This document shows, one piece after another, positions 2,254 through 38,474 of a stretch of 41,036 nucleotides of DNA. The translations under genes were made by a program, and so were the position numbers. Each line of letters starts with the position of its first letter. The first letter of the stretch is position 1. The notes under the pieces were generated by a model. It ran no database searches. It had not been told where the DNA came from and was given only the letters and a program-made list of their open reading frames with translations. Location of the stretch: the IMG/VR virus record IMGVR_UViG_2778261637_000006. One strand, written 5' to 3'. Source of the DNA: a virus (taxonomy: Duplodnaviria; Heunggongvirae; Uroviricota; Caudoviricetes).

Positions 2254-4190
2254 TAAACTGCCCTCACAATGTAATTAAGTGCAATGCTACGGGGTCTGAC
2301 AGTGATACCCTTCGCATACCCGCTTCTGATAGAGGTCAGAATAGTAGCCTGCATACCATTGTCTGACATTGCCACGACAGGATCGCTGAATGTTGTCCCG
2401 TCCGGCATTTTAAAGCTGCCCTCACGAAGGTCTGTAATGGAATCTTCATTGTTGAATCCCATGCCGACTATCCCCGAGGTTCCCGTAGTGTCCTGGTTAT
2501 AATAATCCAGCATTGCTGTTCTTAACAGCGTTGCCCCTTGTGCGGACAGCAACTTACGTCCTGTATCAACTTTGCGCCCGTCGTCCCATCCACGGATAAA
2601 CTCACCGCGTAAATCGGGAAGACGGAGGGTCGGGTAGACTCTGGCCAGAACAGGATATTGTTCTTTTGTAAAGGCGCGCCCGTCGCACTTTAACCAGCCT
2701 GCTGGCGGTGTGGCGGTGGGCCACGGAACAGGCACACCAACGGGTAGCGCCGAGCCTTCTCCTAAACCAAGGTAATTGAGGACATCTTTTATACTGCCCT
2801 TAGCGATAATAGCGCGACCAATAGCTGTAAGGGTTGCCAGCGCTGCGCGGTCTGCTCCGGTAAAATAAGGCAACCGATCTGCTGCAGTGGCAAGTCCTGC
2901 CAGAGCAGTGAGCGTGGCATCTGCCGGTTGTTTTCCGTTTGCCAGATCGTATGCAGCCTTGACCGCTTTCGGTGTGGCGGCCAGTATTTCAGACGTGCTG
3001 TTGATGGCACTGCTCAATTGTATGGTGCCTTTTGCCGTCAGCGAGGCAGCAGGCACTCCCGTTATCTGACTCCACGGGTGAGTGTGGCTGACGGGCGCCT
3101 TGCCGGCTGCAAGGTCGTATGCAGCCTTGACCGCCTTCGGCGTGGCAGCCTCAGTTTCTGATTGACTGTCCGTGGCGCTGCTCAGTTGTACGGTGCCTTT
3201 TGCCGTCAGCGAGGCAGCAGGCACTCCCGTTATCTGACTCCACGGGTGAGTGTGGCTGACGGGGGCCTTGCCGGCAGCCAGGTCATATGCAGCCTTGACG
3301 GCCTTTGGTGTGGCGGCCAGCGTTTCAGAGGTGCTGTTGGTGGCACTGCTCAGTTGTACGATCCCTTTACGGGTCGTTGTTGCATCCTGGGCTGTGTATT
3401 TTCCCCGGGCCAGATCATACGCGATTTTCACAGCCTTCGGCGTGGCAGCCTCAGTTTCTGATTGACTGTCCGTGGCGCTGCTCAGTTGTACGGTGCCTTT
3501 TGCCGTCAGCGAGGCAGCAGGCACTCCCGTTATCTGACTCCACGGGTGAGTGTGGCTGACGGGGGCCTTGCCGGCAGCCAGGTCATATGCAGCCTTGACG
3601 GCCTTTGGTGTGGCGGCCAGCGTTTCAGAGGTGCTGTTGGTGGCACTGCTCAGTTGTACGATCCCTTTACGGGTCGTTGTTGCATCCTGGGCTGTGTATT
3701 TTCCCCGGGCCAGATCATACGCGATTTTCACAGCCTTCGGCGTGGCAGCCTCAGTTTCTGATTGACTGTCCGTGGCACTGCTCAGCTGTACGGTGCCTTT
3801 TGCCGTCAGCGAGGCAGCAGGCACTCCCGTTATCTGACTCCACGGGTGAGTGTGACTGACGGGTGCCTTGCCGGCTGCAAGGTCGTATGCAGCCTTGACG
3901 GCTTTTGGTGTGGCGGCCAGCGTTTCAGAGGTGCTGTTGGTGGCACTGCTCAGTTGGGTGAACCCCTTAGCTGTCAGTGTCGCGTCCGGGTGGTTACGGG
4001 AACGTACGTGTTCAGCCAGTGACTGTGCGGCTTCCTCCGTTTTTTTCTTCAGCCATTTCGTCCTGTTTGCCAGTTGCCGGGGGGCTCGATTTGATATCCC
4101 GTCAGCACCACCCAGAACCGGATCTGATGTCTCCAGTTGATAGATTTTTTCTTCCCACTTTTCTGTTTCATTCAGGTTTCCCATAATCAA
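2253..4190 (-). CDS. Tail fibre protein (Mu S-like) with internal repeats; currently fused variable tip
   Basis: 645 aa; repeated ~100-aa units (TAKGTVQLSSATDSQSETEAATPKAVK...); C-terminal 170 aa begins with the shared LGEGSALPVG block. Confidence 0.9.
   Translation of the reverse strand: MIMGNLNETEKWEEKIYQLETSDPVLGGADGISNRAPRQLANRTKWLKKKTEEAAQSLAEHVRSRNHPDATLTAKGFTQLSSATNSTSETLAATPKAVKAAYDLAAGKAPVSHTHPWSQITGVPAASLTAKGTVQLSSATDSQSETEAATPKAVKIAYDLARGKYTAQDATTTRKGIVQLSSATNSTSETLAATPKAVKAAYDLAAGKAPVSHTHPWSQITGVPAASLTAKGTVQLSSATDSQSETEAATPKAVKIAYDLARGKYTAQDATTTRKGIVQLSSATNSTSETLAATPKAVKAAYDLAAGKAPVSHTHPWSQITGVPAASLTAKGTVQLSSATDSQSETEAATPKAVKAAYDLAAGKAPVSHTHPWSQITGVPAASLTAKGTIQLSSAINSTSEILAATPKAVKAAYDLANGKQPADATLTALAGLATAADRLPYFTGADRAALATLTAIGRAIIAKGSIKDVLNYLGLGEGSALPVGVPVPWPTATPPAGWLKCDGRAFTKEQYPVLARVYPTLRLPDLRGEFIRGWDDGRKVDTGRKLLSAQGATLLRTAMLDYYNQDTTGTSGIVGMGFNNEDSITDLREGSFKMPDGTTFSDPVVAMSDNGMQATILTSIRSGYAKGITVRPRSIALNYIVRAV
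2570..2784 (-). repeat. Copy C of the homology block, inverted relative to A and B, inside the fibre gene; candidate crossover core at about 2759..2784
   Basis: Reverse complement reads CCTTGGTTTAGGAGAAGGCTC followed by ~190 bp near-identical to copy A. Confidence 0.5.
2860..3960. repeat. Tandem direct repeat, 300-bp unit, about 3.5 copies, in-frame in the fibre gene
   Basis: Identical stretches at 3121, 3421 and 3721 (cagccttcggcgtggcagcctcagtttctgattgactgtccgtggc); shadow ORFs 3162..3461 and 3462..3761 are identical. Confidence 0.85.
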
Positions 4191-27784: not shown

Positions 27785-28549
27785 ATGAAAATGAAGACAT
27801 TACCCATCGTTCCATGGATTGGTGGCAAACGTCGCCTGGCAAAACACATCCTGCCGCTGTTTCCGGCGCATGAATGTTATGTGGAGCCGTTTTGTGGGGC
27901 AGCAGCGCTCTATTTTCTTAAGACACCCGGCAAGATCGAAGTCATCAATGATATCAACGGTGAACTGGTGAATCTGTACCGGGTGGTAAAGCATCACCTG
28001 GAAGAATTTGTCCGCCAGTTCAAATGGGCGCTGGTCAGCCGTCAGATCTACAAATGGCTGCAGATCACCCCGGAAGAAACACTGACGGATATCCAGCGTG
28101 CGGCACGGTTCTACTACCTTCAGAAGCAGGCGTTTGGCGGCAAGGTGGCAGAGCACAGCTTCGGTACCTCCACCACATCCCCGCCACGCTTCAACCTGCT
28201 GCGTATTGAAGAAGAACTGTCAGCAGCACACCTGCGGCTTTCCAGAACAGTCATAGAACACATGGACTGGCAACAGTGCATTGAGCGTTATGATCGTCCG
28301 CACACACTGTTCTACTGCGACCCACCGTACCTGGGTACGGAAGGCTATGGTGTGGATTTTCCTGAAGGGAACTACTCGCGGCTGGCAGAGCTGGCCCGGT
28401 GCATCAGAGGAAAAATGATAATTTCGGTGAACGATATCCCACAGATGCGCGAGGTGTTCACTGGACTGAACATACAGACAGTGAACATCAACTACAGTCT
28501 GGCGGGGAAATCTACGCCGCGCCGTGAACTGGTAATCTGCAACTTCTGA
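27785..28549 (+). CDS. DNA N6-adenine methyltransferase, Dam-like
   Basis: 254 aa; AdoMet motif FCGAAALYF then catalytic DPPY (FYCDPPYLG) in the order typical of Dam-type enzymes. Confidence 0.85.
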   Translation: MKMKTLPIVPWIGGKRRLAKHILPLFPAHECYVEPFCGAAALYFLKTPGKIEVINDINGELVNLYRVVKHHLEEFVRQFKWALVSRQIYKWLQITPEETLTDIQRAARFYYLQKQAFGGKVAEHSFGTSTTSPPRFNLLRIEEELSAAHLRLSRTVIEHMDWQQCIERYDRPHTLFYCDPPYLGTEGYGVDFPEGNYSRLAELARCIRGKMIISVNDIPQMREVFTGLNIQTVNINYSLAGKSTPRRELVICNF

Positions 28550-29028: not shown

Positions 29029-29057
29029 TTGACTGGTGAGGTAATCTGCACCATAAT
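29029..29057 (+). promoter_or_regulatory. Candidate sigma70 early promoter for the ner-like/transposase operon
   Basis: TTGACT (29029..29034), 17-nt spacer, CATAAT (29052..29057); AAGGAG SD 6 nt before ATG 29105. Confidence 0.45.
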
Positions 29058-30579: not shown

Positions 30580-32349
30580 ATGAATGCTGCCCTGACTGAA
30601 CGACTGGTTTATGTCGCCCGCGCGGCACGTGACGCGGGGCATGGTAAACGCGGCGCAGTATACGACGCTGCCTGTGCTGAACTTGGCATGTCCCGCGCCA
30701 CTCTGCTGCGCAGGCTGAAGGAGGTATCTGTGACTGATAAACGCAAAAAACGCGCCGATGCCGGGCGCAGCGCCCTGACCCGCGACGAAGCCGCGCTGAT
30801 ATCTGCCACACTGCGTGAGGCCACCCGCAAGAACGGTAAGCGTCTCTATTCCATCGCGGATGCAGTGGAAACCCTGCGGGCTAACGGCTTTATATCCGCA
30901 GGCAGAACAGATGAAACCACCGGTGAGTTTTTCCCGTTGTCCGAAGATGCCATCAGCCGAGCCCTGCGTAACTATGGCCTGCACCCGGAACAACTGGATG
31001 CCCCTGCGCCGCATACCGAAGTGGCCAGTCTGCATCCCAATCATGTCTGGCAGATTGACGCCTCACTCTGCACGCTTTACTACCTGAGCAATGGACATAA
31101 AGGGCTGCAGGTGATGGACAGCGCGAAGTTCTACAAGAACAAGCCCGCTAACCTTGCCCGTATCGCCAGTGACCGCGTGTGGAGTTACGAGATTACCGAC
31201 CATGCCAGCGGCTGGATTTACGTTGAGTATGTGACGGGCGCGGAATCAGGTGAGAACCTGTGTTCTGTGCTTATCAACGCCATGCAGGAGCGTGGCGGCG
31301 CAGACGTGCTGCACGGTGTGCCGAAAATACTCTATCTCGACCCCGGCTCGGCAAACACCGCGGGTATGACGAAAAACATGTGCCGCTCACTGGGCATCGA
31401 CCTGATAGCGCACAAGCCGCATAACGCCCGCGCCACCGGACAGGTGGAAAAGGCGCGGGACATTATCGAACGCAAGCTGGAGCCGGGTCTGAAGTTCCGG
31501 CCGGTTCACAGTCTGGAAGAACTCAACGCGCTGGCCGCGAAATGGCGCAGCCACTTTAACGCCACGGCTGTTCACAGCCGCCACGGTAAAACCCGCACGG
31601 ATATCTGGCTGAAGATTACTGCTGAGCAGCTGAAAAAAGCGCCTTCCGTTGAGGTATGTCGTGAACTGGCTGTGGCGGCACCAGAACTCCGCAAAGTCAC
31701 GCCAAAACTTCGTGTCTCGTTCCGGGGCACTGAATTTGACGTATCAACGGTACCGGGCGTACTGGTTGGTGAAAAACTGATGATTACCCGTAACCCGTGG
31801 CGCAGCGATGTGGCACAGGTGGTTCTGACCGGTGAGGACGGCCACGAGACGTTCTTCCTGGTCGAAGAGGTCAGAAAGAACGAGTTTGGCTTTGCTGAAG
31901 GCGCGGCGGTATTTGGCGAAAGTTACAAAGCCCTGCCGGAAACCCCGGCGCAGATGGCGGCAAAAGAAACCGAAGCGCTGGTCACCGGTACAGACAACGC
32001 CGCAGATGCAGCTGCCGCACGCAAGGCGAAGGCGCTGCCGTTCGGCGGGCGGCTTGACCCGTATAAACATATCGACGACACCACACTTCCGGCCTATATG
32101 CCGAAGCGTGGTCAGGCCTCTGACGTACGCGGGCCGCGCACTGAACAACGTCCCATGACTTATGTGGAGGCCGCGAAAGCCCTGCGCGATAAGTTCAGCG
32201 CCAACGGCTTTACCTGGACGCCGGAACATTACCGCCAGTTAACGGCACAGTATCCGGACGGCGTACCGGAAGCCGCACTGGATGAAGTCATGGCCACGCT
32301 GACCACGCCGGCCCGCAGCAGCGTTATCAGTATTGTTAACGGCAACTGA
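30580..32349 (+). CDS. DDE transposase, Mu A-like (rve/integrase core)
   Basis: 589 aa; integrase-core-like region from about residue 150 (HVWQIDASL, ILYLDPGSANT); followed by B-like ATPase and Gam. Confidence 0.85.
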   Translation: MNAALTERLVYVARAARDAGHGKRGAVYDAACAELGMSRATLLRRLKEVSVTDKRKKRADAGRSALTRDEAALISATLREATRKNGKRLYSIADAVETLRANGFISAGRTDETTGEFFPLSEDAISRALRNYGLHPEQLDAPAPHTEVASLHPNHVWQIDASLCTLYYLSNGHKGLQVMDSAKFYKNKPANLARIASDRVWSYEITDHASGWIYVEYVTGAESGENLCSVLINAMQERGGADVLHGVPKILYLDPGSANTAGMTKNMCRSLGIDLIAHKPHNARATGQVEKARDIIERKLEPGLKFRPVHSLEELNALAAKWRSHFNATAVHSRHGKTRTDIWLKITAEQLKKAPSVEVCRELAVAAPELRKVTPKLRVSFRGTEFDVSTVPGVLVGEKLMITRNPWRSDVAQVVLTGEDGHETFFLVEEVRKNEFGFAEGAAVFGESYKALPETPAQMAAKETEALVTGTDNAADAAAARKAKALPFGGRLDPYKHIDDTTLPAYMPKRGQASDVRGPRTEQRPMTYVEAAKALRDKFSANGFTWTPEHYRQLTAQYPDGVPEAALDEVMATLTTPARSSVISIVNGN

Positions 32350-32359
32350 GGAGGGAAAC

Positions 32360-33526
32360 ATGCTGGTACTGAAGCAGCAACTGAAAGAAGCCCGTATTCC
32401 ACAGGCGGTGGTGGCGAGAGCTGTCGATGTTTCTGAGGCCACGCTGGCCCAGATTGTGAATCATAACGCGTGGCCCCGCACCAGCCCCGGAGAAGTGCGC
32501 CGGCGTCTTGCGTCCTGGCTGGAAAGTCAGGGGATTGATACAACGAAGAGTTTTGATGCTGTACAGGGCGCGGCCACGCCCCGTACAGCGGGTACCACAG
32601 ATAAAACGAGCCTCAGTGAGGAAGAGAATATGTTACTCAAAAAACAGGTGTTATTTCCAGCAACCAAAAAAGCGTTTGGTCTTTTCCGTGACCCGTTCGC
32701 CGACGAAGCCATGCAGGGTTCTGATGATGTGTTCACCACCCCGGATATTCGCTACGTGCGTGAGGCGTTGTACCAGACAGCCCGTCATGGTGGGTTTATG
32801 GCCGTCATCGGTGAGTCCGGTGCGGGTAAATCCACGCTGCGCCGCGACCTGACTGAACGTATCAACCGCGAGAATGCGCCGGTAATTGTTATCGAGCCAT
32901 ACATCATCGCTATGGAAGACAACGATGTGAAAGGGAAAACCCTGAAGGCAGCAGCGATTGCCGAAGCCATTATCAGTACCATCGCACCACTGGAAAGCAT
33001 CAGACGCAGTCAGGACGCCCGCTTTCGCCAGTTGCATCGCGTCCTGAAAGACAGCAGCCAGGCGGGGTTCAGCCACGTTCTGGTGATTGAGGAGGCCCAC
33101 AGTCTGCCCATTCCGACACTGAAACACCTCAAACGCTTTTTTGAGCTGGAGTCCGGTTTCAAAAAACTGCTGTCCATCGTGCTGATTGGCCAGCCGGAAC
33201 TGGCGACAAAACTGTCTGAACGCAATATGGAAGTCCGTGAAGTCGTTCAGCGCTGTGAGGTGGTCGAACTTCTGCCTCTGGACAATAACCTTGAAGAGTT
33301 TCTGACGTTCAAACTGCAACGGGCCGGTAAACAACTGACGGACATTATGGACGCCAGCGCAGTGGATGCCATACGTGCCCGCCTGAGCAATCCGGGAAGT
33401 CATCGTAAAAATATGGTCAGCCTGCTGTATCCGCTGGCCGTCAGTAACCTGGTAATAGCCGCCATGAATCTGGCCGCTGAAATCGGGGTTCCACAGGTCA
33501 ACGCTGACGTTGTCAAAGGGGTTTAA
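32360..33526 (+). CDS. Transposition ATPase, Mu B-like (AAA+)
   Basis: 388 aa from ATG 32360 with GAGGAGGG SD; N-terminal HTH, Walker A GESGAGKST, Walker B HVLVIEEAH. Confidence 0.8.
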   Translation: MLVLKQQLKEARIPQAVVARAVDVSEATLAQIVNHNAWPRTSPGEVRRRLASWLESQGIDTTKSFDAVQGAATPRTAGTTDKTSLSEEENMLLKKQVLFPATKKAFGLFRDPFADEAMQGSDDVFTTPDIRYVREALYQTARHGGFMAVIGESGAGKSTLRRDLTERINRENAPVIVIEPYIIAMEDNDVKGKTLKAAAIAEAIISTIAPLESIRRSQDARFRQLHRVLKDSSQAGFSHVLVIEEAHSLPIPTLKHLKRFFELESGFKKLLSIVLIGQPELATKLSERNMEVREVVQRCEVVELLPLDNNLEEFLTFKLQRAGKQLTDIMDASAVDAIRARLSNPGSHRKNMVSLLYPLAVSNLVIAAMNLAAEIGVPQVNADVVKGV

Positions 33527-33528
33527 TA

Positions 33529-33798
33529 ATGAAATCCACCACAGGTATCAACCAGCAAATCAGCAAAGTGCAGTCAGCCATTATGGCGCTTAAGGCGACG
33601 AACACGGATGTACAAAGCATCACCATCAGGGGTAACAAACCTGTCATCCGCGTTTCCCGGAGTGCGCATTGCATGCGCATGCTTGAGCAGGGAAAGGCCT
33701 GTTATCTGTATACCGGTCATGACCACAGGGGACATTTCCGTCAGGGCGTTTTCGAACTGCACGGCTGTCGCGTCGTGTGGCCGGAATCTTTGTGGTAA
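33529..33798 (+). CDS. Hypothetical small early protein
   Basis: 89 aa, several Cys/His; coupled to the B-like gene. Confidence 0.5.
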   Translation: MKSTTGINQQISKVQSAIMALKATNTDVQSITIRGNKPVIRVSRSAHCMRMLEQGKACYLYTGHDHRGHFRQGVFELHGCRVVWPESLW

Positions 33799-33825
33799 TC
33801 AGCACAACAGGAGGAGTCATAAAAT

Positions 33826-34356
33826 ATGGCAAAAAGTACAAAAGGGGCAAAACGTATCAAAGCCGCAGCAGCACTCTGGGTGCCGGGGACACGCGAAGAG
33901 GTCATTGAGGGAATCAGACTGCTTGGTGACGCGCAACGTGAACTGGTCAGGGCTGAAACAGAAATGAATGACACCATTGGCGACATCACCGCACGTTATG
34001 CCCCGCTCACCGAGAGCCTGAAAAAACGCATGGCCGAACTGCAGTCCGGTATTCAGACATGGTGTGAGGCACACCGTGATGAACTGACCGGCAACGGGAA
34101 GGTGAAGTTCGCTAACCTCACCACCGGCGAGGTGCAGTGGCGAAACCGTCCGCCGTCAGTCAGTATCCGTGGGGCGGATAATGTTATTGAATTACTGAGA
34201 CGTCTGGGGCTTGAGCGCTTTATCCGTGTAAAGGAGGAAATAAATAAAGACGCCATCCTGAATGAAAAGGACGCCGTGAAAAATATTCCCGGTATTACCA
34301 TAAAAAGTGATATTGAGGATTTTTCAATAATTCCTTTTGAGCAGAATGTGCAGTAA
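33826..34356 (+). CDS. gam: Host-nuclease inhibitor Gam (Mu Gam / Ku-like)
   Basis: 176 aa; blocks such as RIKAAAALWVP, WCEAHRDELTGNGKVKFANLTTGEVQWRNRPPSVSIRG, GIEDFSIIPFEQ match Mu Gam as recalled. Confidence 0.9.
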   Translation: MAKSTKGAKRIKAAAALWVPGTREEVIEGIRLLGDAQRELVRAETEMNDTIGDITARYAPLTESLKKRMAELQSGIQTWCEAHRDELTGNGKVKFANLTTGEVQWRNRPPSVSIRGADNVIELLRRLGLERFIRVKEEINKDAILNEKDAVKNIPGITIKSDIEDFSIIPFEQNVQ

Positions 34357-34452
34357 AAACAGCATATAAGCTATTTAAAACAGCCTTTTCTTTTTTATTC
34401 CGGCATCAGCGCCGTGGGCTTCTGCACGCCGGAAACAGAGGAGAATTAAATC

Positions 34453-34647
34453 ATGATATTTAAATGTATTCAGTGCGAGAGGGATATAACAGCCCTGCGT
34501 TTTCACAGCGCCATCGCCGTGATGTCCGGTAAGTACCACGTACCTGCAGTACGCGTCACCCTGGTCTGTCCGTACTGCAGTCAGCATTTTTCGGCAGACG
34601 TGCCCGTCATGGAATTCTCCCGCCCTGACAGGGAGGACTCGCAATGA
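34453..34647 (+). CDS. Small zinc-ribbon-like protein
   Basis: 64 aa with CIQC and CPYC pairs. Confidence 0.5.
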   Translation: MIFKCIQCERDITALRFHSAIAVMSGKYHVPAVRVTLVCPYCSQHFSADVPVMEFSRPDREDSQ

Positions 34648-34916
34648 TTACCCCACAGGAAGCACGACAGCGCACCCGAACCCTTGTTGAACACTATGTC
34701 AACGAGTGTGAATGCCGCGACCTCACCGATGTGAAGCACGTCCTGACGGCGCTAATCAGCATGACCGCTCAGGCCATTGTGGCGACCAACGGAAAGGCGG
34801 CTGCCCTGCAGGTACTGGTGAACACACTCACCCACACGGCAGAGCACGATGTGCCGTACCGGATGGAAACCACTGCAGAAGGCGGCCTGAACATCACCGT
34901 CGACCGGAAACACTGA
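34644..34916 (+). CDS. Hypothetical small protein
   Basis: 90-aa ORF coupled to neighbours. Confidence 0.5.
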   Translation: MITPQEARQRTRTLVEHYVNECECRDLTDVKHVLTALISMTAQAIVATNGKAAALQVLVNTLTHTAEHDVPYRMETTAEGGLNITVDRKH

Positions 34917-34925
34917 GGGCGCGGC

Positions 34926-35231
34926 ATGACACGGAACACCGAACTCACCCGCACCGCCCTCTACCGTCTGGCCCTGCAGCGTTTCGGGCCGGACGCACAG
35001 GCCCTGAAACTGACAGAAGAGGCCGCTGAACTGGCGGCCAGTGCCGCCCGCAACCTGAACGGACAGGGCAGCGAAAGTGACCTCGCGGCAGAGCTGGCAG
35101 ACGTGGAAATCATGACAGAGCAGCTGCGCCTTCAGGGAATGGACCGGCTGATTGACTTCCACAAACAGAAAAAACTGGAACGCCTTGCCGCACGGCTGGG
35201 CGTCATGTACACCGGAGATACTGAACAATGA
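34926..35231 (+). CDS. MazG-like nucleotide pyrophosphohydrolase-type small protein (tentative)
   Basis: 101 aa with acidic helices TEEAAELAASAA and AAELADVEIMTEQL resembling MazG-like metal-binding motifs. Confidence 0.45.
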   Translation: MTRNTELTRTALYRLALQRFGPDAQALKLTEEAAELAASAARNLNGQGSESDLAAELADVEIMTEQLRLQGMDRLIDFHKQKKLERLAARLGVMYTGDTEQ

Positions 35232-35911
35232 CAGACCAGGATAAACACATTGAGAAACTGAAAAAGTTGCTGGCGCTGGCCGCATCCGGCAACCCTCACG
35301 AGGCCGCTCTGGCACTGCGCCGTGCCCGTAAACTGATGGATGTTCACGGCATCACACATTCCGACATCGCCATGAGTGATATTGATGAAACCATCAGTCA
35401 CTACTGGCCGACAGGCAGCCTCCGTCCACCGCGCTACATGCTGGGCCTGATGAACATCATCCGCGAGGCATTTGGTGTTAACTCCATCATTCACCCCGGC
35501 ACATATCCGGGTGTGGGGTTCTACGGCAACCGGGAACGGGCTGCACTGGCTGCGTACACCTGGGAAGTGCTGGCCCGCCAGCTGAAAAAGGCGCGTCAGC
35601 AATATATCAGCGCACAGAACAAAAGAATAAAAACTGCCACCCGTACCAGCCGTGGTGACCAGTTTGCTGAAGGCTGGGTGCTGGCCGTTATCAGTGAAAT
35701 ACAGTCCTTCGCCCTGACCGATGACGAACGTGAACTGATGCAGCAGTGGCTGGAACATAAATACCCGCAGACGCAAACCACCAGGGCGCGTAAACCGGGA
35801 AGAAGCCGCAATGGCGACGCCTCGCGCTATGCGGGGTTTCTTGAAGGGCAGAACGTCAGACTGCACCGCCCGGTCAGTGGGCAGGAACAACAGAAACTGG
35901 AGGCCAGATGA
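35228..35911 (+). CDS. DUF2786-like early protein
   Basis: 227 aa; N-terminus IEKLKKLLALAASGNPHEAALALRRARKLMDVHGI. Confidence 0.55.
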   Translation: MTDQDKHIEKLKKLLALAASGNPHEAALALRRARKLMDVHGITHSDIAMSDIDETISHYWPTGSLRPPRYMLGLMNIIREAFGVNSIIHPGTYPGVGFYGNRERAALAAYTWEVLARQLKKARQQYISAQNKRIKTATRTSRGDQFAEGWVLAVISEIQSFALTDDERELMQQWLEHKYPQTQTTRARKPGRSRNGDASRYAGFLEGQNVRLHRPVSGQEQQKLEAR

Positions 35912-36138
35912 TTACGCTATCAGGTAAAAGCCGGAAATTAAAAGCCTGCCGAATATCTGCCAGATACCTTTTTGCCCGCGCCTTTTTTAAGAACGTCAGG
36001 CCGGGGATCACAATTGGTGTTATTGCCGGACGCGAACAGGTTGAAAAATACATGTCAGGTGCATGGTGGAATAACGACCCTGTCATTGCTGCCCGTAATA
36101 TTCATATCAGTTGGGGGGATATTCAGAATGACGGCTGA
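35908..36138 (+). CDS. Hypothetical basic small protein
   Basis: 76 aa, ATGA overlap with the upstream gene. Confidence 0.4.
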   Translation: MITLSGKSRKLKACRISARYLFARAFFKNVRPGITIGVIAGREQVEKYMSGAWWNNDPVIAARNIHISWGDIQNDG

Positions 36139-36343
36139 ATCTGTTGTATGTGCCCTGTTCTGGTATTGTTTTGTCGGTTGGTGTACTGCTGAACTGCACC
36201 GCCGTTCAGGGTTTTATTCACGTTACAGTGGTGCTGGCTACTGGATTAGCTGGTCGGTGATGTTCCTGTGCTGGCCTGTGGCGCTTCCTTTATATGTCGA
36301 TTATATCGGTGGCGCAGGTAAAAGGAGCAACGATGATGACTAA
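36128..36343 (+). CDS. Small membrane protein (two predicted TM helices)
   Basis: 71 aa from ATG 36128; hydrophobic segments VVCALFWYCFVGWC and WISWSVMFLCWPVALPLYV. Confidence 0.45.
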   Translation: MTAESVVCALFWYCFVGWCTAELHRRSGFYSRYSGAGYWISWSVMFLCWPVALPLYVDYIGGAGKRSNDDD

Positions 36344-36785
36344 ACAACGTCTTATCCAGCTCATTCATATTGCCCGTAATGAACTGGGTATGGATGAAGA
36401 CACCTACCGCCAGATGTTACAGGGGCTGACCGGTAAAGCCTCAACCAAAGGAATGGATACCACACAACTAAACTGCGTGCTGGAATCCATGAAAAGGAAA
36501 GGCTTTCGCGTTAAGCCTGCCGGAAAAGCCAGCTCCGGTTTACCGCTGGATAACCATCCGCAGTCCAGGAAAATCCGTGCGCTATGGCTTGAAATGGCTG
36601 CTGCCGGCATTGTTCGTGACCGTTCAGAAAATGCATTAGCGCGGTGGATCAAGCGGGAAACGGGCATCAGCGCCCTGCGCTGGCTCAGTACTGAACAGGC
36701 AAGCAGTGTTATTGAGAAACTGAAGAAGTGGCAGCGCAGAGCTGCGGGAGTCAAACATGAGCGACCTGAATCAGTTTCGAAGTAA
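36333..36785 (+). CDS. GemA-like protein (Mu gp16, DUF1018-like)
   Basis: 150 aa from ATG 36333 with AAAGGAG SD; immediately upstream of mor as in Mu. Confidence 0.6.
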   Translation: MMTKQRLIQLIHIARNELGMDEDTYRQMLQGLTGKASTKGMDTTQLNCVLESMKRKGFRVKPAGKASSGLPLDNHPQSRKIRALWLEMAAAGIVRDRSENALARWIKRETGISALRWLSTEQASSVIEKLKKWQRRAAGVKHERPESVSK

Positions 36786-37155
36786 AGGGCCGGAACTCCT
36801 GGTGGAGCTGGCACAGCATACCTCTGAGACCGTTCGCGAGATTATTGATATTGAGCCCGCAATTGCCGACCAGATTGGTCAGGCCGTCGCGAACCGAATG
36901 ATGCAGGTCTGGGGCGGGCAAAACGTTTATTTCCCGATGGGCATGGTATGGAAGGTCAGTCAGCGCGACCGGGAAATCTTCAGGGAGTTTAACGGACGCA
37001 ACCACCACGAACTGGCCCGCAAGTTTGGTGTTTCGCTTCAGTGGGTCTACAGCGTGGTTAAGCGGGTCAGAAAAGAAGAACTGGATCGGATGCAGGGCAG
37101 GTTGTTTGATGAAGATCTGCCAGAGGAGACGAAAGACGTTAACAAATCCAGATAA
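36757..37155 (+). CDS. mor: Middle operon regulator Mor (Mor/C family activator)
   Basis: 132 aa; C-terminal HTH FNGRNHHELARKFGVSLQWVYSVVKRVR matches the Mor pattern. Confidence 0.8.
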   Translation: MSDLNQFRSKGPELLVELAQHTSETVREIIDIEPAIADQIGQAVANRMMQVWGGQNVYFPMGMVWKVSQRDREIFREFNGRNHHELARKFGVSLQWVYSVVKRVRKEELDRMQGRLFDEDLPEETKDVNKSR

Positions 37156-37198
37156 TTCCTGCTTGTTAAAGTCCTTTCAAAAATCTCCTTATTGTATA

Positions 37199-37231
37199 AA
37201 AGCACGGTAGACCCCTTACCGTGCTTTTTTT
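37199..37231 (+). terminator. Rho-independent terminator after mor
   Basis: Stem AGCACGGTA / TACCGTGCT with 7-nt loop followed by TTTTTTT. Confidence 0.8.
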
Positions 37232-37269: not shown

Positions 37270-37902
37270 ATGTTTGACGTTTCGTTGTTAAATCTGCCAT
37301 GGGCAACACTGGTGACCCTGACCAGTGGCTATATTGGGTATTTTATTGCGAATGTGGGACTGAAGGATCACCACAAGCCCATTGAGGTGACTTTTTCTTC
37401 GCTGATTTTTGGCCTGACAGCAATGATGGCTTACCAGGCTGTTATGTGGGCAGGTCTGAATGCCTGGCTGGCAACACCACCAGCACTTCTGTGTGCCCTT
37501 ACATGCGGTGCGTGGTGGCGCAGGTACGGTCGCAAATGGATGTACAGATTACTGTGGAATAATGATATTTCATGGTCTGACGATACCAGCTCAGCATGGC
37601 AGGCAATGTTTGATCAAACAGGCTTCAGCGTTACCGAGGTCAGAGTGATTCTTCGCGATGGTTCCGGTATGATGTCACGGCTGCCAGGGAACTTTGAAGA
37701 GTGGCCTAACGGTCCGTTTACCCTGGGGAATAAAGGCGATATGGTTCTTTACGTCACGCACAGCAGCCCTTCAGGCAGTAACGAATGGGAAGAGTATAAA
37801 GGCGTGGTTGATAAGTACTGGGGAGCTCTGGCAACCTATATTCCAGCAGATCAGATTGCCAGAGTGGAGATCAGGCGCGTTCGTGCAACGAACGATGAAT
37901 GA
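37270..37902 (+). CDS. Membrane protein of unknown function (cargo near the prophage edge)
   Basis: 210 aa from ATG 37270 with GGGAGAA SD; about three N-terminal TM helices then ~110-aa soluble domain; after the mor terminator. Confidence 0.6.
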   Translation: MFDVSLLNLPWATLVTLTSGYIGYFIANVGLKDHHKPIEVTFSSLIFGLTAMMAYQAVMWAGLNAWLATPPALLCALTCGAWWRRYGRKWMYRLLWNNDISWSDDTSSAWQAMFDQTGFSVTEVRVILRDGSGMMSRLPGNFEEWPNGPFTLGNKGDMVLYVTHSSPSGSNEWEEYKGVVDKYWGALATYIPADQIARVEIRRVRATNDE

Positions 37903-38474
37903 TGTTTATTTTTTCCCTGGGGCAGGGGCTGCCGGCATAGTGGTTTTATTGGCAGAGGAAGACGATTCTCCTTTTCTACCGGAATCGCGCTCGAACGTCA
38001 CGATGTGCTTGCTTTTGGGCTTTTCTGAGTAATCCAGGCTATCATGCTTATTGTTTTGAGTAGTCATTGGAATCATCCTTTTTGTTGCGGGTCATGTTTC
38101 AGCAAACTCGATTCTAAGTTGCCAGGAAGGATGATTTCAATGCCCGACTTATCTATCGTATAGCGGAAAAGAATTTCAGTTCTGTTCACCAGAACCCATG
38201 TTAACCCACTCCAATTCGTTATTTATCTCACGGATCCCCCTTCATTTATCTCATGTCTGATCATTTATTCAACCGACGCAATTTTGCGTACCTGCTTCAT
38301 AAGCATCACGCAAAAGCTGCAAAACAGCATCTTTCCCGGAATCACCATCAAGAACTCGCCGTTCGCTTCTTCCCCTGAAATGATTAACTCCGGTATCATG
38401 TGCGCCTTATGTGATTACAACGAAAATAAAAACCATCACACCTCATTTAATATCAGGGAACCGGACATAACCCC

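Follow-up and report, generated by a model that had tools for sequence, protein, structure and literature searches.

The stretch of DNA analysed here, hereafter the window, is 41,036 nucleotides long and contains a transposable prophage of the BcepMu-like type (Bcepmuvirus), one boundary of which lies 211 bp upstream of mutS. The prophage is carried by 640 of the 5426 complete E. coli genomes (~12%), ST131 among them; its chromosomal insertion site varies between strains and its end reads ...CA. The gene order is the same as in Bcepmuvirus, with a ner-like gene, A, B, a cluster of small genes, gemA, mor and finally a terminator, and the late genes lie on the strand opposite to the early operon, in a genome that is overall of the BcepMu type. 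A sigma-70-like site (TTGACT-17-CATAAT, 29029..29057, + strand), identified by consensus scan only, closely precedes the first early gene on the + strand; it is likely the early promoter and faces a divergent repressor gene. The upstream anchor of the cluster is the transposition protein B, a member of the ExeA/AAA family (32360..33526, + strand; PGAP annotation in identical copies) with 94-100% identity among relatives. GemA (36336..36785, + strand; PF06252 at 1.1e-40) forms the downstream anchor, and a Mor-family middle/late transcription activator (36757..37155, + strand; PGAP annotation) is encoded by the final gene of the early operon, ahead of a strong intrinsic-terminator-like hairpin with a 13 bp stem and a T run (37198..37228, + strand), which is a consensus match only. 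A scan of the whole window against Rfam returned no RNA family.

Nine genes are packed between B and gemA. Short gaps separate the first three (p1, Gam and p3), and from p3 to mor adjacent genes mostly overlap by 4-29 nt (4-11 nt within the cluster), except for a short gap between p4 and p5. A first-pass annotation made from the sequence alone had described a set of small early ORFs here, and their coordinates and + strand orientation were all confirmed, in agreement with the RefSeq/PGAP calls in identical copies. Each cluster gene has a full-length PHROG family match (5e-15 to 9e-76), and pairwise dN/dS values of 0.05-0.4, obtained in informative comparisons against diverged relatives, indicate purifying selection on all of them. 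An overlapping 123-aa ORF (35972-36343) was considered as an alternative to the 76-aa gene and rejected, the conserved unit being the pair of 76-aa and 71-aa genes.

The first gene after B, p1 (33529..33798, + strand; phrog_2041), encodes a basic 89-aa protein with a pI of 9.9, and its start lies 3 nt past the B stop codon, that of Mu kil being 19 nt past B. An exhaustive HMMER search yielded a family of 91 representatives, which hhalign aligned with nearly the whole of Mu Kil (P=1.6e-5 to 4.3e-5, probability 69-79%, 68-69 columns); the value of 1.6e-5 is the best among 161 comparisons of families with Mu and JBD24 proteins, the expected match between p6 and gp17 aside. Pairwise BLASTP of p1 against Mu Kil gave E=0.004 across a common C-terminal LxGCx[IV][IV]W motif. 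When 13 close family members were scanned against PHROG, the Kil families phrog_6381 and phrog_2743 were found in 11 and 6 of them, respectively, full-length and colinear, and among 73 diverse members these two Kil PHROGs were the sole recurrent second families (best E 1.3e-5 and 3.9e-5). The p1 of the window itself matches both weakly and colinearly (E=0.023 for phrog_6381 and 0.21 for phrog_2743). These profiles point to p1 as a probable homologue of Mu Kil, a link that we judge remote given the probability of 69-79%, the best E-values of about 1e-5 and the E=0.023 of the window protein. Expression of Mu kil is described as producing spherical cells, killing the host and altering cell shape (PMC3961180, citing Waggoner 1989). 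By analogy, p1 would poison host cell morphogenesis or division. The 89-aa protein had first been picked out for its Cys and His residues, of which it indeed has three and five, and a role in host takeover is plausible through its probable kinship with Kil, as indicated by profiles and position.

Immediately downstream lies gam (33826..34356, + strand), whose product is with certainty, by homology, a Mu-type DNA-end-binding inhibitor of host nucleases (PF07352 at 7.8e-41, 139.9 bits against a cut-off of 28.3, residues 23-169; phrog_491 at 3.6e-73). Gam proteins are RecBCD antagonists, and the protein of the window would cap linear phage DNA ends against RecBCD, dsDNA-end binding being predicted from homology. 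Among the cluster proteins, only Gam falls in the PHROG category "host takeover". In a Mu-like phage, Gam and GemA have each been reported to license Gabija, which puts the two at the interface with host defence (PMC12407980).

The 101-aa p5 (34926..35231, + strand) is a candidate single-domain, all-alpha MazG-like nucleoside triphosphate pyrophosphohydrolase. It matches phrog_2245 at 3.8e-34 and three more MazG PHROGs, models that come without curated cut-offs. The acidic metal-binding motifs EExxE and ExxD are carried on two helices, and across 18-24 homologues residues E31, E32, E56 and D59 are invariant, with E35 conserved in at least 90%; E61 and E65 are likewise invariant. Its C-terminal residues come from an adjacent gene that has been deleted, as seen at the deletion junction. 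The AF2 model is all-helical (pLDDT 82), and its top Foldseek matches are DCTPP1, iMazG, BcMazG, SsoMazG, HISN2 and YpjD, none of them significant (best E 0.23, TM ~0.46). The tentative MazG-like call of the first-pass annotation gained invariant motifs and four MazG PHROGs, but the protein stays below the curated cut-offs of Pfam PRA-PH (14.9 bits against 21.3) and TIGR03188 (14.4 against 42.7), and sequence and profile searches of PDB sequences found nothing. In its length of about 100 aa, all-alpha character and EExxE...ExxD motifs, p5 resembles Atd1, DCTPP1, integron iMazG and BcMazG, although it differs from the solved MazG enzymes in having no significant sequence match to any of them and in scoring below the Pfam thresholds. 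We regard it as a candidate minimal MazG-like pyrophosphohydrolase with an intact predicted acidic metal site. Its substrate would most likely be a nucleotide, whether a (d)NTP of non-canonical type or an alarmone, for instance (p)ppGpp, and its activity would keep the nucleotide pool clean while the phage replicates or dampen stringent or abortive responses. Atd1, a phage MazG-like enzyme, is a reported counter-defence factor whose removal of (p)ppGpp counteracts defence based on TIR (bioRxiv 10.1101/2022.06.09.495361).

The next gene encodes p6 (35228..35911, + strand; phrog_421), a basic protein of 227 aa in which DUF2786 (residues 8-44, 4.4e-11, 43.0 bits against a gathering score of 23.9) and DUF7168 (residues 46-189, 4.9e-26, 91.5 bits against 25.5) follow each other in N-to-C order. 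A helical hairpin at the N-terminus precedes a beta-alpha-beta-beta-alpha core, and the protein may bind nucleic acid. Assignment of the core to the KH domain was rejected, as the GxxG loop that links the two helices of the KH beta-alpha-alpha-beta-beta-alpha fold is not conserved. Both domains score above cut-off, and architecture and length equal those of the DUF2786/DUF7168 proteins found in phages and on conjugative plasmids. A full-length homologue, gp17 of JBD24 (hhalign 1e-40), is located between Gam and GemA, and the family extends to B3-like, Ralstonia and Pasteurella phages, to non-transposable and lytic phages and to 229 conjugative plasmids. No homologue was detectable among Mu gp5-gp15, a search of PDB sequences found nothing, and a scan of genome contigs with p6 gave no relative. 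In one Acinetobacter plasmid, the DUF2786/DUF7168 gene lies in a one-directional array of small genes, beside H-NS-like and nuclease genes. We found no functional study of either domain in the literature. Placed by the first-pass annotation in a hotspot of host-interference genes, p6 is not a variable cassette: transposable phages conserve it among their early genes, and it is widespread in other phages and in plasmids. Since it is conserved rather than variable, a housekeeping phage role fits as well as a counter-defence role.

Four further proteins complete the picture. The 64-aa p3 (34453..34647, + strand; phrog_3401; dN/dS 0.05-0.21) is a four-Cys protein whose residues C5, C8, C39 and C42 (CxxC...CPxC) are kept in 14 of 14 family variants, down to about 30% identity. 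Conservation of these cysteines, which read CIQC...CPYC in the window, upholds its description as a zinc-ribbon-like protein with two conserved CxxC knuckles and a predicted metal site; Pfam zinc-finger matches are weak. Homology with Mu gp6 was rejected, as the likeness is confined to 13 residues of the CPxC knuckle. The 90-aa p4 (34644..34916, + strand; phrog_3691 at 2e-54) shows, against L012 and L020, a pS of 0.61-0.68 in its N-terminal half and of 0.08-0.11 in its C-terminal half, with dN/dS below 1 in both. Positive selection was rejected because synonymous change is saturated in the divergent N-terminal half and dN/dS is 0.4-0.5, values from which we conclude that this half is a recombination mosaic. 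The 76-aa p7 (35908..36138, + strand; phrog_3681) is basic, as initially described (pI 10.4); in some relatives its place is taken by a 59-aa ORF unrelated to it. The small hydrophobic p8 (71 aa, 36128..36343, + strand; phrog_6436) does have the two hydrophobic stretches, predicted membrane segments, that were first noted in it, and close relatives carry an allele with 39-41% identity. Neither p4 nor p7 has recognisable features, and PADLOC, NCBIfam and PDB sequence searches gave no function-giving match for p3, p4, p7 or p8. For the cluster genes as a whole, nothing usable came from NCBIfam or from PADLOC, the latter being made of defence and not anti-defence models.

Among relatives, the interval is mosaic, with cassettes swapped, inserted and deleted. 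In the same phage pairs, dN reaches 0.05-0.30 in cluster genes against 0.03 in A and B. A Pfam scan of ten proteins encoded by alternative cassettes in relatives returned one DUF and nothing else. Evolution of the block proceeds by gain, loss and swap of cassettes between conserved anchors, B, the Kil-like gene and Gam on one side and GemA and Mor on the other. The semi-essential early (SEE) region of Mu, composed of kil, gp6-gp9, gam, gp11-gp15, gemA and mor, lies, like the cluster, in the span from B to gemA/mor of an operon of the same kind. Mu and the phage of the window clearly share Gam, GemA and Mor as homologues, and the gene that directly follows B is probably related to Kil. Each region is also crowded with small uncharacterised proteins, among them one with four Cys, but no gene is detectably shared with the Mu cluster beyond Kil, Gam, GemA and Mor. 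Mu lacks the MazG-like and DUF2786/DUF7168 genes, whereas the phage of the window lacks gp7-gp9 and gp11-gp14. In JBD24, gp10, directly upstream of Gam, has a weak likeness to the p1/Kil family (P=2e-4); the remaining small genes of the JBD24, JBD30 and B3 early regions are unrelated to those of the window, and a MazG-like gene is absent. Tip and Aqs1 are functions known in the early regions of Pseudomonas Mu-like phages, with no counterpart detected in the window. The proposal that this region is a Mu-type semi-essential early segment therefore holds for its gene order (ner-like, A, B, cluster, gemA, mor) and for its mosaic content.

Taken together, our results lead us to interpret the interval, with a probability of about 70%, as the accessory or "semi-essential early" segment within the early operon of a transposable prophage of the BcepMu-like type, with Gam, Kil-like and MazG-like products. 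The operon would probably start at the promoter near 29.03 kb and end at the terminator at 37198-37228, and its layout suggests that the cluster stays off in the lysogen and is switched on immediately upon infection or induction. Its products would fall into three groups, those assigned to host interference by homology (Gam and p1), an enzyme candidate (p5) and the functionally unassigned proteins (p3, p4, p6, p7 and p8). Sequence comparison makes host interference plausible for the Kil-like, Gam and MazG-like proteins; to this extent the idea of anti-defence or host-takeover candidates was fair in speaking of candidates, although no known anti-defence family was matched in the PHROG and PADLOC scans. 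It is possible, if rather unlikely, that the unassigned proteins include at least one new counter-defence or establishment factor. Foremost among them would be p6, because a family found in the early operons of transposable phages, in many unrelated and mostly non-transposable phages and in conjugative plasmids has the distribution expected of a factor acting at the entry of foreign DNA.

A comparably doubtful reading is that the cluster mainly serves the replicative transposition and DNA handling of the phage itself instead of targeting host defence or physiology, with p6 as a DNA- or RNA-binding replication cofactor. The classical "arm", "sot" and "lig" phenotypes of Mu provide the model for such helpers. 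However, Mu gp5-gp15 include no detectable p6 homologue, the GxxG signature of KH domains is not conserved in p6, and the presence of its family in non-transposable and lytic phages and on so many conjugative plasmids makes a transposition-specific role unlikely. We consider it much less probable still that some of the small genes, above all p8 and the optional cassette for a 71-aa membrane protein, serve lysogenic conversion or superinfection exclusion and benefit the lysogen. Exclusion is a typical role of small membrane proteins, p8 alleles are divergent and a membrane-protein gene has been gained and lost in the adjacent slot; yet these genes lie within a tightly packed early operon and no separate promoter-like site precedes them on the + strand, so that they should be repressed in the lysogen, and the obvious moron position is past the terminator, at 37270-37902. 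That several of the short ORFs are chance reading frames of a GC-rich operon might be suspected from lengths of only 64-90 aa, from several of them having no Pfam domain and from a reverse-strand ORF annotated across the 64-aa gene in the PhiKM phage record, but full-length PHROG matches for every ORF, dN/dS values far below 1 in comparisons with diverged relatives, conserved Cys ligands and coupled start/stop overlaps make this extremely improbable.

The reading of the interval as the accessory early region of a Mu-type phage has several implications. Since about 12% of the complete E. coli genomes carry the prophage, its early genes would be expressed in many clinical strains when it is induced. 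The previously unannotated 89-aa gene is now a testable Kil candidate, and p5 is a MazG-like candidate with an intact predicted active site. The DUF2786/DUF7168 family stands out as a widespread and wholly uncharacterised early protein of phages and plasmids. Otherwise, the region conforms to what is expected of accessory early genes in a Mu-type phage and is an ordinary block that is common in E. coli.

The early operon runs along the + strand in the order small DNA-binding gene, HTH gene, gene for a 303-aa protein, transposase A (30580-32349), B (32360-33526), a cluster of small genes (33529-36343), GemA (36336-36785) and Mor (36757-37155). Sequence matches place a sigma-70-like site (29029-29057) upstream of the first early gene, facing the divergent repressor gene, and a terminator-like hairpin with a 13-bp stem and a T run (37198-37228) 3′ of mor. 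We infer that the early genes are carried on one transcript, which would be silent in the lysogen. The first-pass annotation had described the open reading frames of the cluster and proposed that they are candidate anti-defence or host-takeover genes. All of these reading frames exist as described and agree with the PGAP calls. The cluster comprises an 89-aa protein (p1, 33529-33798), Gam (33826-34356), a 64-aa zinc-ribbon-like protein whose four Cys are retained in 14/14 variants (p3, 34453-34647), a 90-aa protein (p4, 34644-34916), a 101-aa MazG-like protein (p5, 34926-35231), a 227-aa protein with DUF2786 and DUF7168, both over Pfam cut-offs (p6, 35228-35911), a 76-aa protein that is indeed basic (p7, 35908-36138; pI 10.4) and a 71-aa putative membrane protein in which the two hydrophobic stretches expected of a two-TM protein are present (p8, 36128-36343). 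Each gene matches a PHROG (5e-15 to 9e-76), and dN/dS is 0.05-0.4 where divergence is informative (Nei-Gojobori, against the diverged relatives Klebsiella phage KP12, Phi06_2974 B and several IMG/VR contigs). Short gaps separate p1, Gam and p3, and from p3 to mor neighbouring genes mostly overlap by 4-29 nt. The sole sizeable non-coding stretch in the cluster, the 96-bp gap between gam and p3 (34357-34452), includes a CCGGC...GCCGG hairpin lacking a T run, as well as a GAGGAG ribosome-binding site, and gave no Rfam match.

Host-interference roles can be assigned by homology to two products, with certainty to Gam, whose identity is unambiguous from its sequence, and with probability to p1. In the Mu-like phage JBD30, Gam and GemA confer sensitivity to Gabija (preprint, PMC12407980), which puts the Gam-GemA stretch of the operon at the interface between phage and defence. 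Searches of p1 against Pfam, NCBIfam and PADLOC returned no match. The gene has the place that kil occupies in Mu, first after B, and its product shares with Mu Kil the C-terminal motif LxGCx[IV][IV]W (pairwise BLASTP E=0.004). When 13 members of the p1 family were compared with PHROGs at a loose threshold, 11 matched phrog_6381 and six matched phrog_2743, full-length and colinear; both families are annotated Kil, the latter being that of Mu Kil itself. The family profile, run in an exhaustive HMMER search, retrieved 91 representatives at E <= 1e-3, mostly of 80-120 aa, and 73 of these were scanned against 38,880 PHROGs (E <= 0.01): all 73 matched phrog_2041, and the sole other recurrent families were the two Kil PHROGs, matched by seven (best 3.9e-5) and six members (best 1.3e-5). 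Alignment of the family (79 sequences) with Mu Kil by hhalign gave a probability of 69-79% (P=1.6e-5 to 4.3e-5) over 68-69 columns, approximately the entire Kil, and was the top match among 161 comparisons of families with Mu or JBD24, save the expected pair of p6 and JBD24 gp17. We thus consider p1 to be probably a remote relative of Kil. Because expression of Mu kil results in spherical cells (PMC3961180, citing Waggoner 1989), p1 would by analogy be expected to act on host morphogenesis. The 90-aa gp10 of JBD24 (3752-4024 of that locus), directly upstream of Gam, bears a faint likeness to the p1/Kil family (hhalign P=2e-4, 73 columns), and in more distant loci B is followed by a 116-aa reading frame that closes with the same ...G[IC]RVAW motif. 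Transposable phages may generally carry Kil-like genes, under differing family names.

Motif and profiles both give good support to the assignment of p5 to the MazG-like proteins. The match to phrog_2245 (nucleoside triphosphate pyrophosphohydrolase) is at 3.8e-34 and those to three more MazG PHROGs are weaker, and among 18-24 homologues E31, E32, E56, D59, E61 and E65 never vary and E35 hardly does, a pattern corresponding to the EExxE...ExxD of the MazG family. Scores against Pfam PRA-PH and TIGR03188 were under the cut-offs, and neither sequence nor profile searching of the PDB gave a match. AlphaFold predicts an all-helical model (pLDDT 82), for which the top Foldseek PDB matches were human DCTPP1, integron iMazG, Bacillus and Sulfolobus MazG, HISN2 and YpjD, none of them significant (E >= 0.23, TM ~0.46). 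Some relatives are 166-169 aa long; the homologues P0096 and P0115 are extended at the C-terminus, and P0122 resembles an in-frame fusion to the zinc-ribbon gene that lies upstream. The PHROG profile likewise spans 218 positions, with an additional N-terminal half. The enzyme class has a counter-defence precedent, as the phage MazG-like enzyme Atd1 reportedly removes (p)ppGpp and dampens TIR-based defence (bioRxiv 10.1101/2022.06.09.495361), which is not evidence for p5 itself.

Comparison with 70 IMG/VR loci found via Gam, and with PhiKM, KP12 and Phi06_2974 B, revealed that A, B, p1, Gam, GemA and Mor are conserved across the clade. In more distant members p3, p4, p5, p7 and p8 are lost or replaced, and in far relatives entirely different reading frames fill the Gam-GemA interval. 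Close relatives carry a p8 allele at 39-41% identity, an unrelated 59-aa reading frame in place of p7 and, at one locus, a 1.3-kb insertion. Compared across the same phage pairs, cluster genes have a dN of 0.05-0.30 and A and B one of 0.03. The p5/p6 slot (window 35205-35231; loci L012, 7346-7660, and L019, 3130-3805) is found in three states: empty, as in this window, occupied by a gene for a 71-aa membrane protein, or occupied by a 127-aa gene and a membrane-protein gene. The empty state is the product of a deletion across repeated ACCGGAGA microhomology, so that the C-terminal residues TGDTEQ of p5 derive from the lost 71-aa membrane-protein gene. In p4, pS is 0.6 in the N-terminal half versus 0.1 in the C-terminal half, with dN/dS < 1, and the N-terminal half is a recombination patch.

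Rather than a variable cassette, p6 is a conserved early protein, with a full-length homologue, JBD24 gp17, that sits between Gam and GemA (hhalign 1e-40). Relatives also occur in B3-like, Ralstonia and Pasteurella phages, and BFVD yielded 30 phage proteins at E <= 1e-3, all uncharacterised and spread over widely differing phages, phiM12, PhiW-14 and mycobacteriophages among them. The family was detected by tblastn in 285 plasmids (229 conjugative; mostly from Acinetobacter). In the single plasmid inspected (NZ_CP107606.1, 8001-8690), the homologue belongs to a series of small hypothetical genes that all point the same way, and adjoins H-NS-like and thermonuclease genes. The confident AlphaFold model (pLDDT 87.9, pTM 0.78) has a helical hairpin at the N-terminus, a beta-alpha-beta-beta-alpha core and, in addition, long helices. 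Classification as a KH protein was not adopted, GxxG not being conserved; our guess, helped by a pI of 9.9, is that p6 binds nucleic acid. A literature search on DUF2786/DUF7168 found no functional discussion. Each of p3, p4, p7 and p8 matches one PHROG of unknown function and nothing further, and the likeness of p3 to Mu gp6 is confined to the zinc knuckle.

The last 2.5 kb of the window are occupied by mutS, and a Mu-type prophage makes up nearly all the DNA upstream. Of 5426 complete E. coli genomes, 640 contain the region 33400-36900, and in ST131 and further lineages the identity is 100%. Among isolated phages, Escherichia phage PhiKM (Bcepmuvirus; 96% identity) is the nearest. Two other strains have identical prophage copies, inside gspL and beside cusS, respectively, and similarity to both ceases past window 38263, the end of the element (...GATCA, i.e. 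...CA), 211 bp upstream of the mutS start codon (38475). These differing insertion sites with a shared end therefore mark the element, by sequence comparison, as a randomly inserting transposable phage. At the prophage extremity, beyond the early-operon terminator, a gene on the + strand (37270-37902) encodes a 210-aa predicted membrane protein (phrog_12870, a family of unknown function), beside a small reading frame on the reverse strand (37906-38076). The membrane gene is absent from many related loci and 65-69% identical in others, and its moron-like position and behaviour make it a candidate for lysogenic conversion or defence. A DNA adenine methylase gene (27785-28549, +; PGAP annotation of an identical copy) adjoins the repressor region, outside the cluster, with a possible anti-restriction or regulatory function.

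The initial description of the cluster was thus right, and its host-interference interpretation, while reasonable, is borne out only in part: by homology, host-interference roles fall to Gam and probably to the Kil-like p1, p5 is of an enzyme class with a counter-defence precedent, p6 is a conserved early protein, and p3, p4, p7 and p8 are blank. For a Mu-type phage, the cluster is the expected kind of early accessory region, with no departure from it.
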